Shown: piece by piece, positions 5,149-18,435 of the stretch
Layout of the letters: the number at the start of each line of letters is the position of its first letter
How positions within the stretch are numbered: the stretch's first letter is position 1
IMG/VR virus record: IMGVR_UViG_3300029555_000016
Location: 1-34,440 of that record
DNA length: 34,440 bases
Direction: 5' to 3' (one strand)
Origin: a virus
Translations under genes and position numbers: made by a program
The notes under the pieces: generated by a model
What the model saw: only the letters and a program-made list of their open reading frames with translations
What the model was told of the DNA's origin: nothing
Databases searched by the model: none

Positions 5149-6579
5149 TTATCCACGTCGTCGTCCACTACACAGCAGTTGCCGACTATATAACTTTTCA
5201 GCTTCTCTCCAAATTCTTTTACTGTATTCTCCGCTCCTTTTATGTACTCCAAAATGATATTTCGTAACTGCTATCGGGAACTCCTCAATTTCGCTCGCCC
5301 AAAGACAACTTCCTTTCCCGTTGAGTTCTTCCCAGATCAGCGGAAAACCTCCGATTCCGTCAAATAGACTTGCCATTGTCGCGTTTCTTTCGTAACACGC
5401 GCAAAGCCGCTTTATTACCCACCGCCACGGCGGCAGTGCTATCGAATTACCCAGTGCCTTATACCGCGCCGCATCGCTCGTTTTATGTACCTTTCCCGCG
5501 TCGTCCGTCCATTCGCCTATATTCGTCCAATTATCGGGATAGCCTTGCAAGCGCTCGCATTCTAACGGCGTTAAACGACGTATCCCGTATGAGTTCATTA
5601 CGGCTTGCTGGTCATGCATACAGTTTAGCGCACCTGACTTTTCGTGCAAATCCGTTTGATTTTTCTGTCCGTTTCCCACTGCATAACACACCGCTCCCGG
5701 ACCTTTCGACGTCAAAGAAAACGCTGTTCCTTTATCGTCTATTCCGACGGCGTATTTTGCATTCTTGCCTTGATTATAGGCACTTCGGTCAAGGCATATC
5801 GGCACTTGATTACCGCTCGTTCCCATTCGGTTTTGTAACGTCAGAGCATTCTCCCCGCATTCTCTGATTACTTCGTCGGCATGACTCATATCGTAGCACA
5901 CCGCCATTCCTGTACTTCCCGCGCGCAAAGTTTCGCTTCGTTCTTCTTCCGCGCCCACGCTTCCCGCCTTACTGCCCATTAAGTAGTTAAACCCGATTGC
6001 CTTTCCAACGCTTCTTTCAGTATCGGCGGCAGCTCTTTCCCGCGTTTCTCCGCCCGCCGTAACACGCCCCTGCAAGCTTTTTCGGACAAATAATATTTCG
6101 GGTGCGGATTCTCCTCCAAAATCTGCGACAAGCGCGATTCTACGGCGACGCTGGGGCACTCCCCAAAACTGTGCGTCGAGTACTCGCCAAGCAACACTCC
6201 ACCCGTTTCCCATGATACACCCGCAAGTCCGCCACTTCCAGTTCGCAGGTCGAGGAATAACGGCTCCTTTATCCGCAATTCTTGCCGTTTCTTCCAACAC
6301 GACGCGGAAATCATCTCCGTCGTTTGAACTGAACGCGCCGAGTACGTTTTCCCACACCATATATCGAGGTCTAATTTCAGCTGCTCCACTTTTCTCGCTC
6401 GCCTCCCGCATTTCCTTGATTATCCGTATCTGCTCCATAAACAGTCCGCTGCGCACACCGTTTAATCCCGCGCGTTTCCCTGCTACCGACAGATCCTGAC
6501 ACGGACTCCCGCCGATTATTACGTCCACGGACGGCGCGGCGTAACCGCTTATTTTCGTTATATCACCGAGATGTTTCAT
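5149..6579 (-). CDS. DNA (cytosine-5) methyltransferase with non-canonical motif order (III-IV-VI-VIII-TRD-IX-X followed by I-II)
   Basis: Motifs in order: MKHLGDITK, GGSPCQDLS (IV), VWENV (VI), GVPQRRRRIALVADFGG (VIII), RRLTPLECERLQGYPDNW (IX), ALGNSIALP (X), then MASLFDGIGGF (I) and WASEIEEFPIAVTKYHF (II). Confidence 0.85.
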   Translation of the reverse strand: MKHLGDITKISGYAAPSVDVIIGGSPCQDLSVAGKRAGLNGVRSGLFMEQIRIIKEMREASEKSGAAEIRPRYMVWENVLGAFSSNDGDDFRVVLEETARIADKGAVIPRPANWKWRTCGCIMGNGWSVAWRVLDAQFWGVPQRRRRIALVADFGGESAPEILFVRKSLQGRVTAGGETRERAAADTERSVGKAIGFNYLMGSKAGSVGAEEERSETLRAGSTGMAVCYDMSHADEVIRECGENALTLQNRMGTSGNQVPICLDRSAYNQGKNAKYAVGIDDKGTAFSLTSKGPGAVCYAVGNGQKNQTDLHEKSGALNCMHDQQAVMNSYGIRRLTPLECERLQGYPDNWTNIGEWTDDAGKVHKTSDAARYKALGNSIALPPWRWVIKRLCACYERNATMASLFDGIGGFPLIWEELNGKGSCLWASEIEEFPIAVTKYHFGVHKRSGEYSKRIWREAEKLYSRQLLCSGRRRG

Positions 6580-11068: not shown

Positions 11069-11434
11069 TCACGCGCCTTTCAACGCTCTTAAATAGTCTT
11101 CGTGTCCTCGCTGATATGGCTTCGTCCTTTGCTCTATCGTCTTATACAACTCAATGAGCATTTCTGCCGTCCACTCTACCGCTTCTCCCAGCGCATTTTC
11201 GCCCGTGAAAATTTTGTCTTTGTCGGATATGTTGTATTTCTCCTCCATATCGATATTGACCGTTATGGAATTCAGCTTTGCCGAAAAGTTCACAAACGCT
11301 TCCGTTCCGCTTATTCCCAGCCACCCGAATGTCGTAAACTGCACGCCCTGCCAATACCACCCTTGCTCGCACAGCTTCCCGCCTATCCGTTTCATCAACC
11401 TTTCTTTCATTCGTTCTTCTGCCGTCTTTCCCAT
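11069..11434 (-). CDS. First gene of the leftward early operon, hypothetical
   Basis: Start moved to ATG 11434, 8 nt after GGAGG. The track start at 11440 is a TTG. Confidence 0.55.
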   Translation of the reverse strand: MGKTAEERMKERLMKRIGGKLCEQGWYWQGVQFTTFGWLGISGTEAFVNFSAKLNSITVNIDMEEKYNISDKDKIFTGENALGEAVEWTAEMLIELYKTIEQRTKPYQRGHEDYLRALKGA

Positions 11435-11449
11435 TTTCAAGACCTCCGC

Positions 11450-11479
11450 TTGACTTTCACCAACAATTTATAGTATAAT
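11450..11479 (+). promoter_or_regulatory. Sigma-70-type promoter, rightward (TTGACT-18 nt-TATAAT)
   Basis: TTGACT at 11450-11455 and TATAAT at 11474-11479. It faces the leftward promoter. Confidence 0.6.
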
Positions 11480-11510
11480 AATTGTTACTCTATAAATTTT
11501 ATTATGCTTA

Positions 11511-11560
11511 CACTATATTTTATTAGTGTGATTGTATTATATCACTAATAATTTATAGTG
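11511..11560. promoter_or_regulatory. Two 18-bp palindromic operator candidates, CACTA-N8-TAGTG
   Basis: cactatattttattagtg (11511-11528) and cactaataatttatagtg (11543-11560) have centres 32 bp apart and cover the start site and spacer of the leftward promoter. There are also three AATTTATAG copies: 11465-11473, 11490-11498 (inverted) and 11550-11558. Confidence 0.5.
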
Positions 11561-11564
11561 TCAA
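11536..11564 (-). promoter_or_regulatory. Consensus sigma-70 promoter, leftward (TTGACA-17 nt-TATAAT), for the early operon
   Basis: Minus strand reads TTGACActataaattattagtgaTATAAT. Confidence 0.65.
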
Positions 11565-11583
11565 GCGTTTGGAGAAAATAAAT

Positions 11584-11781
11584 ATGAAAAATTTTTTATC
11601 TGAAAAACGAAAGGCATTAGGCTTGACACAACCGCAAGTAGCTGAACTTGCCCAGCTATCAAACTATACTGTTTTGCAAGGATATGAAAACGGAAGACAT
11701 GAACCCACTGTAAGCGTTGCCATTCGCCTTGCACGAGCTTTGCATACAACGGTCGAGGAATTATTCCAAGTAGAAGATTAA
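11584..11781 (+). CDS. XRE-family HTH regulator A (65 aa)
   Basis: Start at ATG 11584 after GGAG. LSEKRKALGLTQPQVAELAQLSNYTVLQGYENGRHEP. Confidence 0.75.
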   Translation: MKNFLSEKRKALGLTQPQVAELAQLSNYTVLQGYENGRHEPTVSVAIRLARALHTTVEELFQVED

Positions 11782-11963
11782 TCGCTGTATAAGGCTTCTA
11801 CTGTCGTTTCAAGGGCTTTTGCAATCTTTACTGCTGTTGAAGCAATTGGCTCATGTCTGTTTGTTTCGTAGCCTTGATATTGACTTTCCTTAATGCCGCA
11901 CTTATCTGATACTTGCTTCTGCGTAAGGTTTAATGCCTCTCTGCGGGCTTTTAACTTATTCAT
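11778..11963 (-). CDS. XRE-family HTH regulator B (61 aa), paralogue of A
   Basis: LKARREALNLTQKQVSDKCGIKESQYQGYETNRHEP. It is convergent with A, and the two stop codons share the palindrome GATTAATC. Confidence 0.75.
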   Translation of the reverse strand: MNKLKARREALNLTQKQVSDKCGIKESQYQGYETNRHEPIASTAVKIAKALETTVEALYSD

Positions 11964-11995: not shown

Positions 11996-12499
11996 ATGGA
12001 TATTTTAGCTTTAATTATTTCTATCTTATCTGCTATCGGAACTTGCGTTGCGGCTTATTTTGCTTTTAGAGCTAATAGACCTAAAATAAAAATAACAGTA
12101 GGCTCTTATTGCTGTTTTTCTCAGGAGAAAAATTATTCATACGTTTATGTGGAATTTTATAATATTTCTCCTGCAACCGAAACAATCAGTCGTATATCTT
12201 TAATAACTAAAAGCGGTAAAGTATATCATAGTAAAAACATTACAGAAAAACAAGATACTCAATTTTTACAGTTTGCCAACCAGGATAATTTCGAAGTAGA
12301 TACTGATAAAATCCTGTTAATCACTCCTATCGTCCTTAAACCCTTCTCCTTTACTTTTGGATGTGTTATTTTCTTTAATTCCGTCCTTACTCACGGAGAA
12401 ACTCTCGCTCTTCAATTTGACCGTGTATCTTGGTTCAAACATCCCATCATAAAATCTGTTATTGCGTCCAGAAATTTTGATGACAAACAATCGAATTAA
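11996..12499 (+). CDS. N-terminally anchored membrane protein, unknown function (A+T-rich accessory gene)
   Basis: GAGGTGGGG ribosome-binding site. The TM helix MDILALIISILSAIGTCVAAYFAF is followed by a beta-rich domain. Confidence 0.65.
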   Translation: MDILALIISILSAIGTCVAAYFAFRANRPKIKITVGSYCCFSQEKNYSYVYVEFYNISPATETISRISLITKSGKVYHSKNITEKQDTQFLQFANQDNFEVDTDKILLITPIVLKPFSFTFGCVIFFNSVLTHGETLALQFDRVSWFKHPIIKSVIASRNFDDKQSN

Positions 12500-12565
12500 T
12501 ATACATATCCAAATTAAAACCGTAAATCCGTTTATCGCAAAAATTACATAATATATTGGCTTCAT
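12317..12565 (-). CDS. Possible small membrane protein overlapping the 3' end of 11996..12499 in antisense
   Basis: GGAGG, a 6-nt spacer, then ATG 12565. The N-terminal TM is MKPIYYVIFAINGFTVLIWICILI. An 82-codon open frame in stop-rich A+T-rich DNA is unlikely by chance, but the true stop is uncertain. Confidence 0.35.
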   Translation of the reverse strand: MKPIYYVIFAINGFTVLIWICILIRLFVIKISGRNNRFYDGMFEPRYTVKLKSESFSVSKDGIKENNTSKSKGEGFKDDRSD

Positions 12566-12578
12566 TACCTTCCTCCCC

Positions 12579-12601
12579 GCAGGCTTCCCGCCTGCTTTTT
12601 T
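12579..12601 (+). terminator. Intrinsic terminator for the rightward accessory gene
   Basis: GCAGGC-ttccc-GCCTGC followed by TTTTTT. On the minus strand no U tract follows the hairpin. Confidence 0.55.
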
Positions 12602-13376
12602 AGTTGTACTTCACCGCTTCGTCGCGCGTGATAAAGAAATGAATACCTGTCGAACACTCGTTCCAGCGGTTTTCATCGAAGTCTGATACACTGACCGTTT
12701 CGCCTACTTTGTAAATAAACCTTTCGTCAAGGTCTGAACAAACCTCCGTTATGCCGCTGTCGCTTCCGTCTATCTCTGTTATCGAAAGTACTTTCGCTTT
12801 CGAGCAACGGCATTTCCGAGTCGTCGCGGACGAGCGTTTCGCATTTTTCGGAATCTGCAATTTGATAATTTTTTCACCTGCTTTTTTGAAGCCGATGAAA
12901 GAGCCTTCTTCGGGGCAACACAAAGCGAAAAACGCTGTATTTTCGTTATATATTGCCCCGCTAAGGTTTGCCCAGCTAAGGTTTGCTCCGCTAAGGTTTG
13001 CTCCGCGAAGGTTTGCCCCGCTAAGGTCTGCCCCACTAAGGTCTGCCCAGCTAAGGTTTGCTCCGCTAAGGTTTGCCCAGCTAAGGTTTGCTCCGCTAAG
13101 GTCTGCCCAGCTAAGGTCTGCCCCACTAAGGTCTGCCCAGCTAAGGTTTGCCCCGCTAAGGTTTGCCCCGCTAAGGTCTGCCCCACTAAGGTCTGCCCAG
13201 CTAAGGTTTGCTCCGCTAAGGTCTGCTCCGCGAAGGTTTGCCCCGCTAAGGTCTGCCCCACTAAGGTCTGCCCCGCTAAGGTTTGCCCCGCTAAGGTCTG
13301 CCCTTTCCCCACCTTCTTCATCGTTCAGCCATTTCCTATGCTTTTCAAGGATTTCGTTCAGTTCGGATTGTGTCAT
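12600..13376 (-). CDS. Pentapeptide-repeat protein (23 A(D/N)LS(G/W) repeats) with a Cys-containing C-terminal domain
   Basis: Start moved to ATG 13376 (AAAGGAG ribosome-binding site). [25 protein letters not shown] precedes the repeats. The C-terminus reads ...[13 protein letters not shown]...[13 protein letters not shown]...[20 protein letters not shown]. Confidence 0.85.
12957..13301. repeat. Tandem 15-bp repeat array (23 units) encoding the pentapeptide repeats
   Basis: Units such as ccgctaaggtttgcc, ccactaaggtctgcc and cagctaaggtttgct differ at only 1-3 positions. All frames on both strands stay open as a result. Confidence 0.95.
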
Positions 13377-13399
13377 CTTTGCTCCTTTCCCTCCACGGG

Positions 13400-13597
13400 C
13401 TATTTCACAAAACACGCGATTACTTCGTCGGTGCTTACGCCGAAAACTTCCGCAAGTTTCGTCGTCATAATAATATCAGGCTTTGCTTTCCCGTTTTCCC
13501 AATTACTGATAGTATTTTGTTTGACTTTTAACTTCTGCGCAAGTTCCATTTGAGTAAGTTTAGATTTTTTTCTCAATTCTTCAAACACTTCTTCCAC
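13400..13597 (-). CDS. Cro-like XRE HTH regulator
   Basis: [29 protein letters not shown]. It is divergent from the repressor. The true start is probably the second GTG (13588), which has better spacing from GGAGG. Confidence 0.75.
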
Positions 13598-13620
13598 CTC
13601 CTTTTTATCTATTACACTGA

Positions 13621-13649
13621 TATTATAACCCGTTTAATTGATAAAGTCA
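13621..13649 (-). promoter_or_regulatory. Leftward promoter of the cro-like operon (TTGACT-17 nt-TATAAT)
   Basis: Minus strand reads TTGACTttatcaattaaacgggtTATAAT. Confidence 0.65.
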
Positions 13650-13717
13650 ACTGTTTTATCAGTAATTTATCAATATTTTTTCTAAAAATATCTTTTTAAT
13701 TGATTTTACTGATAAAA
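13637..13717. promoter_or_regulatory. Operator-like TGATAAA/TTTATCA repeats in the cI/cro intergenic region
   Basis: ttgataaa (13637-13644), ttttatcagt (13653-13662), tttatcaa (13665-13672) and actgataaaa (13708-13717). The last is the exact reverse complement of 13653-13662. Confidence 0.55.
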
Positions 13718-13728
13718 TGTTTTATACT
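13700..13728 (+). promoter_or_regulatory. Rightward promoter of the repressor-integrase operon (TTGATT-17 nt-TATACT)
   Basis: TTGATT at 13700-13705 and TATACT at 13723-13728. Confidence 0.55.
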
Positions 13729-13762
13729 ATCCATGTAAATGATAATATATGGAGGTTCTAAT

Positions 13763-14416
13763 ATGGAGCAATATAGGCTAAATCTTAAAGCTGCACGAAA
13801 AAGTAAAGGTTTAACCCAGCAACAAGTCGCTGATTTTATAGGAATTTCTCAAAATAACTATTCTTACTGGGAAAACGGAAAAGTAAAAATTGATAATGTA
13901 TCACTTCAACGACTCTCAAATCTCTTTGACGTATCGGTAGATTTCCTTTTAGGTCGGGAAACGCATACGAGTATAGACACCACGCCCAAAGCTGTAAAAA
14001 TAAAAGACCTCGTCATTAAAGACGAGGTTGAAATAAATGATTTTTATCCGATTCCGCTTTTGGGAAGCGTTGTTGCAGGCGTTCCTATCGAAGCCCAGGA
14101 AGATTTAGAGGGATATGTTTATATCAGTTTCAGACCGAAAGAAGAATACTTTGCCCTCCGTGTTCATGGAGATAGTATGATAAACGCGGGAATTAGAGAT
14201 AACAGTATTTTAATTGTGCATAAACAACCTTACGCTACCTGCGGTGATATTGTCGTGGCTATGTTGAACGGAGAACAGACGGTCAAAAGGTTCAAAATGT
14301 ACGGCGACAACATTTTTTTGATGCCCGAGAATCCCGAATTTGAGCCTATTCCCGTACTGAAAGGCGCGGACTTCTTGATTTTAGGCAAGGTTGTTGAAGT
14401 CAGAATGACTTTATAA
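13763..14416 (+). CDS. LexA/cI-like repressor (XRE HTH plus S24 peptidase)
   Basis: Start at ATG 13763, 8 nt after GGAGG. HTH GLTQQQVADFIGISQNNYSYWENG. S24 motifs are ..VVAGVPIEA.., HGDSMINAG (Ser) and TVKRF (Lys). Confidence 0.88.
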   Translation: MEQYRLNLKAARKSKGLTQQQVADFIGISQNNYSYWENGKVKIDNVSLQRLSNLFDVSVDFLLGRETHTSIDTTPKAVKIKDLVIKDEVEINDFYPIPLLGSVVAGVPIEAQEDLEGYVYISFRPKEEYFALRVHGDSMINAGIRDNSILIVHKQPYATCGDIVVAMLNGEQTVKRFKMYGDNIFLMPENPEFEPIPVLKGADFLILGKVVEVRMTL

Positions 14417-14418
14417 TT

Positions 14419-15627
14419 ATGGAACACGACGATATTAAATTAGAAATAGTCGATATAAACGACGGAGAAGCTCTGATCGAAGCGGCAAAGCCAAAAGGAA
14501 AACCGCTGACCGAGGAACAGAAACGCGCGCTTATCCGAGCGCAAAAGAAAAAAGAAGAAGAAAAAAGGAAATTGGGCGTTTTGCATTTCACTCAGGAGGA
14601 ATGGAAAAAAATGCCCAAGAATGTAAAAAGAGCCTTTAAAGTTCACGGAATATTCGGTCGCCCGCGCATGACCGAAGACGGATTATATCAGATTCGTACC
14701 CGCGCGCATGGGTTGAATATCCAAGTTACGCATAAAGATTTCACCGTTTGCAAAGAATTATACGTGCAAGCCTTGGAGAACGCTTTGGAGGGCGTAGAAA
14801 CGTCGAAAAGGAAAGCTCCCGTATGTTTTATCGAATATATGTGCCAATGGCTGGAAACCGTAAAGAAACCCTCTGTAAAACCCGTTACTTACGCGGATTA
14901 CAGACAAACCTTTATCGCATATATCAGTCCCGCGTTTTCCGAAAGAAAAATAAAAGATATTTCCCGTCAGGAATTGCAGGAATTTATTAACAGTTATTCG
15001 GAGTCTGGGAAAAATAGAACGGCAAAAAAGATTTACCAGCTTTTGAATGCTGCATTCGATTATGCCGTAGAGGATGAGCTTATTTCCAAAAGCCCTATGG
15101 AGCGCGTTGTTTTGCCCAAATACGAGCAGGAACACGGACAGGCGCTCACTCGTGCGGAAGAAAAAGAATTTATCGAGAGAGCTAAAAAGACGTCTTATTT
15201 CGGGGCTTTGATTTTCCTGCTTTATACGGGCTTGCGGCGTTCGGAACTCGCAAGCGTAATAATCGACGGAGAATGGATACGGCTTGTTTCCGCAAAGCAA
15301 CGCAAAGGCGCAACCTTAAAAGAACGCTCTATTCCTATTACACCCATGCTTGAAAAAGTCCTTCCCGCGCTAAATCTTTCCGAAGTTAAAACAGTAAATC
15401 CCTCCATGTTGACAAAGTGGGTAAATAAGATTATGCCAAATCACCACTGCCACGATTTAAGACATACGTTTATTACACGCTGCCAAGAATGCGGAGTGCC
15501 TACTCCGATAGTCAGCCTTTGGGCTGGACATAAAATTTCGGGGATAGATTCTTCCCTTACCGTACAGGTATATTCCCACTATTCCGAGGAAACTCAGCTC
15601 TTAGAAGCCCGAAAAGTAAGATATTGA
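14419..15627 (+). CDS. int: Tyrosine integrase
   Basis: ..LLYTGLRRSEL.., HHCHDLRHTFITR, WAGHK and VYSHY make up the R..HxxR..H..Y catalytic set. The gene lies next to attP. Confidence 0.9.
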   Translation: MEHDDIKLEIVDINDGEALIEAAKPKGKPLTEEQKRALIRAQKKKEEEKRKLGVLHFTQEEWKKMPKNVKRAFKVHGIFGRPRMTEDGLYQIRTRAHGLNIQVTHKDFTVCKELYVQALENALEGVETSKRKAPVCFIEYMCQWLETVKKPSVKPVTYADYRQTFIAYISPAFSERKIKDISRQELQEFINSYSESGKNRTAKKIYQLLNAAFDYAVEDELISKSPMERVVLPKYEQEHGQALTRAEEKEFIERAKKTSYFGALIFLLYTGLRRSELASVIIDGEWIRLVSAKQRKGATLKERSIPITPMLEKVLPALNLSEVKTVNPSMLTKWVNKIMPNHHCHDLRHTFITRCQECGVPTPIVSLWAGHKISGIDSSLTVQVYSHYSEETQLLEARKVRY

Positions 15628-15636
15628 GAGCGGTTT

Positions 15637-15688
15637 ACTACCCAATTTTACTACCCAAAAATACAAAAAATAGCCGTTTTTGGGTAGT
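15637..15688. repeat. attP arm: ACTACCCAA x2 direct (15637-15645, 15650-15658) plus one inverted copy (15680-15688)
   Basis: Read directly from the sequence. These are candidate arm-type integrase or excisionase binding sites. Confidence 0.6.
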
Positions 15689-15708
15689 AAGCACTTAACC
15701 ACAAACAT

Positions 15709-15811: not shown

Positions 15812-15890
15812 ATAATATTTATTCACTATTTTTAGCGTATATATTGCATATAATATATATTTATATATAATTTTAAATAAAAATACTTTA

Positions 15891-18072: not shown

Positions 18073-18435
18073 TTACTTATTCATCGTCCCCAGCACACCG
18101 CGCTCCGCCCTGTCATCTGCACGCTTCGACATCCACATAAGAGCTTCCTCAATGTGCGTAAGAGCGCAGGCATTCTCGCGGGTTTTATATTCGCCCTGCT
18201 GAAAACACTGTAAACGATGACGGACGATCTCTAAAAGGTCGCTGTCTAAAATACCCGCCACGGCGTTTTCTTCTTTTCTCGCACCCTTTTGGAATTGAAT
18301 ATCCGCAAGTTTTTCGCCTGTGTCCGCGCGACGTATCACATAATTGTGTCTGCCGTTACCGGGTCCCGCCACATCTTCGACGAGTATATCGTTAAGGTTA
18401 CCGTTACGTTGAATTCTGAAATTGATTTTATCCAT
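18073..18435 (-). CDS. Small conserved-looking phage protein, unknown function
   Basis: 120 aa; ..IQFQKGARKEENAVAGILDSDLLEIVRHRLQCFQQGEYKTRENACALTHIEEALMWMSKRADDRAERGVLGT. I cannot assign a family name. Confidence 0.6.
   Translation of the reverse strand: MDKINFRIQRNGNLNDILVEDVAGPGNGRHNYVIRRADTGEKLADIQFQKGARKEENAVAGILDSDLLEIVRHRLQCFQQGEYKTRENACALTHIEEALMWMSKRADDRAERGVLGTMNK

Follow-up and report, generated by a model that had tools for sequence, protein, structure and literature searches.

What kind of protein is specified by a block of nearly identical 15-bp repeats that lies next to a cro-like gene in a viral genome, and what could such a protein do for its phage? The question is raised by IMG/VR virus record IMGVR_UViG_3300029555_000016, of which we analysed positions 1 to 34,440, a stretch of 34,440 nucleotides referred to here as the window. 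An intact open reading frame (ORF) at 12600..13376 on the minus strand encodes, by ORF calling and translation, a protein of 258 amino acids (258 codons) that consists of an N-terminal cap, an array of 23 pentapeptide repeats and a C-terminal DUF5758 domain. The protein is a further representative of the PF00805 + PF19062 architecture, which is already catalogued but uncharacterised, and filing it there tells us what the protein is, not what it does. We find that its DUF5758 domain is strongly conserved whereas the repeat solenoid varies in length, charge and surface, and that unit number differs even between assemblies of essentially the same phage. We tentatively propose that the gene product is an accessory factor that interferes with the host early in infection. 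In this explanation, to which we would give slightly less than an even chance, the work is done by the constant DUF5758, and the solenoid offers a changeable scaffold or surface.

Both parts of this architecture score far above the Pfam cut-offs, with 193 bits against 20.2 for the Pentapeptide model PF00805 and 137 bits against 26.9 for PF19062, the latter covered over profile positions 1-105 of 105. An initial annotation, made from the sequence alone, had suggested that the separate C-terminal domain resembles a domain of unknown function that accompanies pentapeptide repeats, and this was correct, since the PF19062 match is full length. A GGAG-type ribosome-binding site (RBS) precedes the ATG at 13376, and a longer GTG start at 13415 is unused in the homologs, all of which start at the position matching this ATG. 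The cap helix, amino acids 3-17, has a predicted local distance difference test score (pLDDT) of 94-98 in the AlphaFold2 (AF2) model, and across 88 homologs its ILEKHxKWL motif keeps H13 invariant and L10 and W16 nearly so. Behind it, in the codon register, stand exactly 23 uninterrupted pentads, 21 of the form A(D/N)LS(G/W) and two reading ANLRG; the initial count of about 24 pentapeptides was one too many, amino acids 141-145 (AIYNE) being a degenerate cap after the array. Two ORFs in other frames also cross the array (12751-13470 on the plus strand, 239 amino acids; 12779-13321 on the minus strand, 180 amino acids). We regard them as by-products of the 15-bp periodicity, and their products, which consist of LRFAP... 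and QTLAG... repeats, could be miscalled as genes. A search of GenBank phages for near-identical DNA gave no match, the exact 258-residue protein was absent from the contig index searched, in which relatives were reached via 90%-identity clusters, and every PHROGs match of the repeat protein was to a function-unassigned family.

The repeats are more alike in their DNA than the peptide requires. Tandem Repeats Finder (TRF) reported a period of 15 bp over 12953-13303 with 23.4 copies, 87% matches and a score of 499, and typing of the 23 units at 12957-13301, where the initial annotation had placed its near-identical repeats, yielded eight distinct 15-mer types in the order ABCADEFCABFCGEFHFCADHFB. 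Mean pairwise identity among the units is 0.88, compared with 0.62 expected for the same peptides written with the window's own codon usage and a maximum of 0.665 in 500 simulations; the Ala codon is GCA in all 23 units (background 23%) and the Leu codon CTT in all 23 (background 16%). The array of a Dysosmobacter prophage is equally homogeneous but is written in other synonymous codons (GCC, CTG and TCC/TTC, as opposed to GCA, CTT and AGC), such that a unit GCA-xAC-CTT-AGC-GGG in the window faces GCC-xAC-CTG-TCC-GGG in the prophage. Because homogeneity within arrays is combined with codon divergence between them, the array, as judged from these sequences, undergoes concerted evolution by repeated unit gain, loss and conversion, in agreement with the initial suggestion of recent expansion or concerted evolution. 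What is conserved across these arrays is evidently the peptide, not the DNA. A DNA-level element such as iterons, an origin or a CRISPR-like array is ruled out because relatives retain the peptide under different codons; there are also no spacers. Variation is focused on two outward-facing pentad positions and arises via single-base changes such as AGC to CGC, GGG to TGG, AGG or GAG, and TCC to TTC. We also considered a diversity-generating retroelement and rejected it: no reverse transcriptase or template repeat was seen, and the variable bases within units (G/A, A/C and G/T changes at several codon positions) are not adenine-specific.

The initial annotation had further predicted that repeat number would vary, and a comparison of related phages bears this out, with all counts resting on assemblies, not reads. 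Unit counts of 14, 23 and 24 were obtained from three assemblies that are at least 99.6% identical and represent essentially one phage. The window has 23, and the copy integrated in a bacterial scaffold, L009, has 24 through one extra F unit, which is the single gap in 8.2 kb of 99.6% identity. The contig L010 has 14, units 4-12 being missing in a 135-bp deletion whose junction lies between two identical C units and shows an exact match of 29 nt. In the phages L001 and L002, which are 94-99% identical to the window across large genome parts, we counted 23 units in an order that differs from that of the window and 10 units, respectively. Beyond these genomes, length changes in 5-residue steps among proteins whose N and C domains are identical, with 10-24 units among proteins more than 90% identical and 3-35 across the family (250 homologs). 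In the assemblies, the array thus combines the features of a contingency-type coding repeat, namely a 15-bp unit, identity above protein constraint, copy-number polymorphism and breakpoints at unit borders, and it offers a clean natural case of a cytoplasmic phage protein shaped by concerted evolution and copy-number polymorphism.

Structure prediction supports a right-handed quadrilateral beta-helix for the repeat region, with four pentads per coil and approximately 5.75 coils. The full-length AF2 model has a pLDDT of 92.5 and a beta-bridge at every fifth residue from 27 to 142, and this predicted fold, which the initial annotation had anticipated, is also that of the solved pentapeptide-repeat proteins recovered by sequence and structure searches. 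The closest solved relatives are the cyanobacterial NP275/276, synthetic solenoids and HetL, whereas structures of Qnr and MfpA match with much weaker E-values; in Foldseek, NP275/276, HetL, MfpA and Qnr structures were matched at E 1e-12 to 1e-6. The repeat domain of the window protein is acidic (net charge -9, 11 Asp versus 2 Arg, isoelectric point 4.05). Over 250 homologs, the net charge of this domain ranges from -24 to +6 and is zero or above in 24%, and even in close orthologs with the same cap and C domain it spans about -10 to +1 (P0006 +1, P0019 0, P0004 -1).

The C-terminal domain, by contrast with the variable solenoid, is strongly conserved. Among 150 DUF5758 representatives (50%-identity clusters), C154 is retained in 99%, C189 in 100%, C241 in 95% and H246 in 99%, while K164, R181, R190 and G244 are kept in 100% and Y222 and R237 in 99%. 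From this pattern, the Cys and His residues may bind a metal as a Cys3-His site or form a catalytic Cys/His pair, and the conserved KRSSATxRKCR would be a phosphate-binding basic patch. The AF2 model of DUF5758 is mostly beta (pLDDT 87, predicted template-modelling (TM) score 0.78). A Foldseek search of the PDB with this model gave nothing meaningful (best E 1.3, TM 0.25), and a sequence search of the PDB with the C domain gave no match at E<=10. Among the viral protein models of BFVD, 37 match at E<1e-3 with query-normalised TM scores of 0.49-0.73 and sequence identities of 12-38%; they stem from phages and from giant viruses such as Mimivirus and Klosneuvirus, and their annotations read MORN-, HEAT- or pentapeptide-repeat or RING-finger protein. 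A weak, sub-threshold Pfam match of the C domain to DUF7666 (E 0.019) points in the same direction. DUF5758 stands as a confidently predicted fold that lacks a solved analogue and recurs, in models, in giant-virus proteins.

The architecture is widespread. A protein search returned 7953 of 8000 scored candidates at E<=1e-20, and all 120 listed matches carry PF00805 and PF19062, with DUF5758 always after the pentapeptide-repeat region in the best matches listed; a profile of the C domain reached 6639 50%-identity clusters at E<=1e-3. Deposited phages with this architecture comprise 152 Mycobacterium phage records (for example, Cjw1 gp59) as well as Ralstonia, Rhizobium, Synechococcus, Thiohalocapsa and human-gut phages, and relatives of the protein are also found in prophages of Flavonifractor plautii and Dysosmobacter welbionis and in Christensenella and Clostridia metagenome-assembled genomes (MAGs). 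In Oscillospiraceae prophages, the immunity switch lies on one side of the gene and the ERF/Gp157-SSB-DnaB genes on the other. The operon divergent from the repressor gp56 of mycobacteriophage Cjw1 has gp59 in third place, and the T7-like Ralstonia phage BOESR1 encodes HIBIKMCM_00009 in its early region, upstream of its RNA polymerase gene. In every context that we inspected, unrelated phages included, the gene belongs to the earliest operon. The family is thus placed by position in the first-expressed operon of temperate and lytic phages on Firmicutes, Actinobacteria and Proteobacteria, which is the usual place of Ocr, Ral, Gam and similar host-takeover genes. At the same time, the gene is accessory and sporadically distributed. 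DUF5758 occurs within 6 kb of a related ERF gene in 1 of 80 viral contigs, and L092, with an ERF 91% identical to that of the window, is without the repeat gene, its cro abutting the hairpin that in the window lies beyond the repeat gene's stop codon. A 45-bp stretch holding this hairpin (12561-12605) is conserved in relatives that do not have the repeat gene, and in L001 the homology breakpoints coincide exactly with the repeat-gene borders.

How is this combination of a constant domain and a changeable array best explained? The most plausible role, judging from the sequence features described above, would be that of a counter-defence or host-takeover factor built of two modules. The virus-associated DUF5758 would carry a biochemical activity or make contact with some conserved molecule (nucleic acid, a nucleotide or a core enzyme, for instance), and it probably holds a Cys3-His metal site beside its conserved basic patch. 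The N-terminal beta-helix would be a compact, pseudo-symmetric solenoid with freely changeable length and outward residues, and its part would be that of a scaffold or binding surface instead of a DNA mimic of precise shape. The array itself may act as a hypermutable locus: slipped-strand mispairing or unequal recombination between near-identical 15-bp units would raise or lower their number and alter their order without loss of frame, and the same events would also keep the array homogeneous in each lineage. Several points weigh against this host-interference explanation. Early expression is deduced from the position of the gene; PADLOC returned no match for the protein (no search of an anti-defence library was made); and in the literature on DUF5758 and on phage pentapeptide-repeat function, we found no functional study and no paper that names DUF5758. 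Moreover, the solenoid may vary because a real binding surface is engaged in an arms race, not because constraint is lacking, and our data are compatible with a scaffold as well as with a variable recognition surface. Finally, within the 90% clusters of P0002, P0027 and P0081, members derived from Logan are consistently shorter (148-198 amino acids) than members from ENA (up to 268 amino acids). Logan assemblies use k=31 and their members are systematically short, which suggests that some short variants were collapsed by small-k assembly. Other repeat proteins of that collection call for the same caution, and, in practice, the length of this gene as given by short-read assemblies is unreliable without reads. 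The same shortness is what speaks for an assembly artefact, in which the differences in repeat number, and possibly in unit order, would stem from a 345-bp low-complexity array whose true length is fixed. We consider this most unlikely, as the longest exact internal repeat of the window array (65 bp) and the 29-nt junction match are both far below the k=119 implied by the L010 contig name, the 24-unit variant differs by one added unit inside otherwise closely matching sequence, and six contigs, among them one from an NCBI-deposited Flavonifractor plautii genome assembly, encode one and the same 29-unit protein, P0045. With the longest internal exact repeat at 65 bp, it is plausible that a modern assembler would have recovered the window array. 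In addition, a published comparison of two completely sequenced Salmonella phages, L and ST64T, documents the loss of a single pentad of the early-left gene orf232 through a 15-bp deletion between genomes more than 99.9% identical (PMC8022706).

The initial annotation had judged plausible an inhibitor resembling Qnr, MfpA and McbG and directed against gyrase or a DNA-binding defence. In this model, an acidic beta-helix would pose as B-DNA and tie up a DNA-binding enzyme of the host at an early stage of infection. Candidate targets would be gyrase or topoisomerase IV (compare Qnr, MfpA and McbG), restriction or BREX systems (compare Ocr and ArdA) and AddAB/RecBCD (compare lambda Gam and T7 gp5.9). 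The pentapeptide fold, the acidic repeat domain of the window variant and the position of the gene in an early operon upstream of ERF recombination genes are all in line with this idea, as is the analogous setting of orf-232 in ST64T, next to ral and upstream of erf and abc1/abc2. A study of a Listeria phage has likewise noted HHpred similarity of an uncharacterised phage protein to gyrase-inhibiting repeat proteins (PMC12282133). However, the NCBIfam models are missed by a wide margin (Qnr 38 bits versus a cut-off of 240, QnrA 50 versus 450, MfpA 49 versus 360), the array is uninterrupted by pentad register and holds no Qnr-type loops, and where a C-terminal dimerisation helix would be expected the AF2 model has the beta-rich domain of 105 amino acids, with only a short terminal helix at 251-256. 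A solenoid net charge that passes through zero among close orthologs and a length that changes from 14 to 24 units within the same phage would also fit poorly with mimicry of DNA. With a rise of 4.8 Å per coil, a monomer of approximately 5.75 coils spans roughly 28 Å, or about 8 bp, which likewise speaks against it. No Ocr-, ArdA- or Arn-type anti-restriction family was found among the Pfam, PHROGs, NCBIfam and PADLOC matches, and we down-weighted a Gam-like partnership with the ERF recombinase, as 79 of the 80 related ERF loci do not have the gene. DNA mimicry also leaves the strongly conserved DUF5758 unexplained, and it does not in itself predict anti-defence activity: McbG and QnrB did not inhibit BREX (PMC7261183). 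Taken together, we regard a DNA mimic as unlikely and argue against labelling such phage genes 'Qnr-like' or 'quinolone resistance'. Another possibility is a role inside the phage programme, in which DUF5758 would bind nucleic acid and the protein would act on phage DNA or on the phage's own machinery for replication and recombination, or would be a regulator. This would suit the basic patch and a position directly upstream of the ERF, DUF6291, DnaB, RusA and SSB genes, but the gene is not part of the replication and recombination core, as it is missing from nearly all phages with related ERF modules, including the one with a 91% identical ERF, and it is also met in T7-like and giant-virus contexts with other replication systems; we hold a phage-internal role to be very unlikely. 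A bolder version of the host-interference idea would make DUF5758 an unrecognised metal-dependent viral effector or anchor that phages and giant viruses have in common and that is mounted on interchangeable solenoids (pentapeptide, MORN or HEAT). The phage array would then be a contingency locus in which units are quickly gained, lost and shuffled and the two outward-facing positions mutate, so that a counter-defence protein of the immediate-early phase is retuned or disguised and could, for instance, evade host sensors of phage proteins. This we consider rather improbable. Because a tractable member exists in phages of M. smegmatis (Cjw1 gp59 and the other mycobacteriophage matches), the question is directly testable.

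The features of the locus are collected in the table below. To call the repeat gene the second gene of a cro-like operon, as the initial annotation did, is a fair description, and it probably is co-transcribed with cro because a terminator scan found no terminator-like site on the minus strand in the spacer between the two genes.

Table. Coordinates of the repeat gene, its parts and the adjoining features in the window.
Feature	Position	Strand	Evidence and remarks
Pentapeptide-repeat + DUF5758 gene	12600..13376	-	ATG at 13376, TAA 12602-12600; PF00805 E 3e-58, PF19062 E 2e-40; same start in homologs
N-terminal cap, amino acids 1-25	13302..13376	-	Predicted alpha-helix at 3-17 with the ILEKHxKWL motif, then a GGER linker
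Repeat array, amino acids 26-140	12957..13301	-	23 tandem 15-bp units, A(D/N)L(S/R)(G/W); TRF, unit typing, codon homogeneity, AF2 bridges
DUF5758 domain, amino acids 150-254	12615..12929	-	Mostly beta; full-length Pfam match, AF2, conservation, BFVD matches
cro-like HTH_3 gene, 65 amino acids, first of operon	13400..13597	-	Pfam HTH_3 2e-16, phrog_8
Intergenic spacer, 23 bp, with RBS (GGAGGGAAAGGAGCAAAG before the ATG)	13377..13399	-	Sequence; no terminator
Sigma-70-like promoter upstream of cro in the divergent switch region, TTGACT-17-TATAAT	13622..13650	-	11/12 matches; consensus scan only
cI/LexA-like repressor gene (HTH_3 + Peptidase_S24), divergent	13739..14416	+	Pfam
Integrase-like gene, after the repressor	14419-15627	follows the + repressor	Identical gene in L009 and L010 annotated Phage_integrase
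GC hairpin + T-run beyond the stop codon	12579..12595	+	Terminator orientation for the convergent + gene 11996-12499

Early minus-strand transcripts may read through the hairpin beyond the stop codon because no U-run follows it on that strand, and the early genes found downstream in the window and its relatives are ERF, DUF6291, DnaB, RusA and SSB. Identical copies of the repressor gene in L009 and L010 are annotated Peptidase_S24. The cro/repressor/integrase module at 13397-15700 has no nucleotide homology in L001 and L002 despite early and late flanks that are 94-99% identical (L003 was also compared), and these alignments show a module exchange with one breakpoint exactly at the boundary of cro and the repeat gene. 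As a whole, the window looks like a complete, circularly permuted genome of a temperate phage. The L010 contig, of 34,319 bp, is 99.8-99.9% identical to it over 20.6 kb, and in L009 the same phage is found integrated next to AddAB-like genes of a 594-kb bacterial scaffold; homology to L009 ends near window position 15812, a likely att boundary, and a 13-bp direct repeat is present at 15634-15658. In a genome scan, the best identities (57-67%) were found in Christensenella and Clostridia MAGs, and a gut-dwelling member of the Clostridia is the probable host.

Several other features of this genome deserve mention. The 1.46-kb segment 11118-12582 is absent from the otherwise 94-99% identical L001 and L002. 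It holds two small convergent helix-turn-helix (HTH) genes, 11569-11781 (+) and 11778-11963 (-), sigma-70-like promoters at 11564->11536 (-, 12/12 matches) and 11450-11479 (+, 11/12), and, at 11996-12499 (+), a gene for a 167-residue protein of phrog_4989 that by eye has an N-terminal transmembrane-like helix and is followed by its own terminator at 12579-12595. We read this segment as a likely moron or second switch cassette that may act in superinfection exclusion. In the late region, a 120-residue ORF at 18073-18435 (-) matches the Acb2/Tad1 hairpin domain PF24729 (E 1e-6, 29.2 bits versus a cut-off of 27). Its product is a candidate cyclic-nucleotide sponge that would counter CBASS or Thoeris, and L010 has an identical gene with the same Pfam match. 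The early operon further includes a C5 DNA methylase of 476 amino acids at 5149-6579 (-), with PF00145 in the 99.4% identical copy of L001, and the region around 1225-2822, which is incompletely aligned, is homologous to a gene at 16433-17938 of L001 that combines ParB_N with an N6/N4 methyltransferase. Both methylase genes likely provide self-methylation that protects against restriction.

When the protein is set beside known systems, its closest counterparts are Cjw1 gp59, BOESR1 HIBIKMCM_00009 and the F. plautii and D. welbionis prophage proteins, which share the cap helix, the A(D/N)LXX array and DUF5758, pass both Pfam thresholds and have C domains 46-67% identical to that of the window. 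Relative to these members, the window array is unusually uniform and shows the 14/23/24-unit polymorphism. The gyrase-protecting proteins Qnr, MfpA, McbG and AlbG share the quadrilateral beta-helix of A(D/N)LXX pentads, and the surface of the window variant is acidic. The window protein differs from them in having neither loops A and B nor the dimerisation helix and in its added DUF5758, the length and charge of its family vary among orthologs, and its solenoid matches theirs structurally less well than it matches cyanobacterial repeat proteins. The giant-virus and phage proteins annotated as MORN-, HEAT- or RING-finger proteins resemble it in their predicted DUF5758-like fold, a likeness drawn from fold models. 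The type III effectors NleL and SopA also join an N-terminal pentapeptide solenoid, which matches structurally, to a C-terminal effector domain, and this pairing of a beta-helix with a catalytic domain may serve as an architectural precedent for the host-interference explanation. The resemblance is an analogy only, as their C-terminal domain is wholly different (a HECT-like E3 ligase) and they are secreted bacterial effectors that act in eukaryotic cells. Closer in setting is orf-232 of the P22-like Salmonella phages ST64T and L, a pentapeptide-repeat protein of the early-left operon with the similar cap motif ILEEHKVW that is encoded between the immunity region and erf, next to ral (in ST64T, L091, at 11086-11784 on the minus strand, adjoining ral and upstream of erf and abc1/abc2). 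Orf-232 differs in its GADLR-type units and in an unrelated C-terminal domain that has no DUF5758 match, and, together with the window protein, it suggests a broader class of phage early repeat proteins with exchangeable C-terminal domains.

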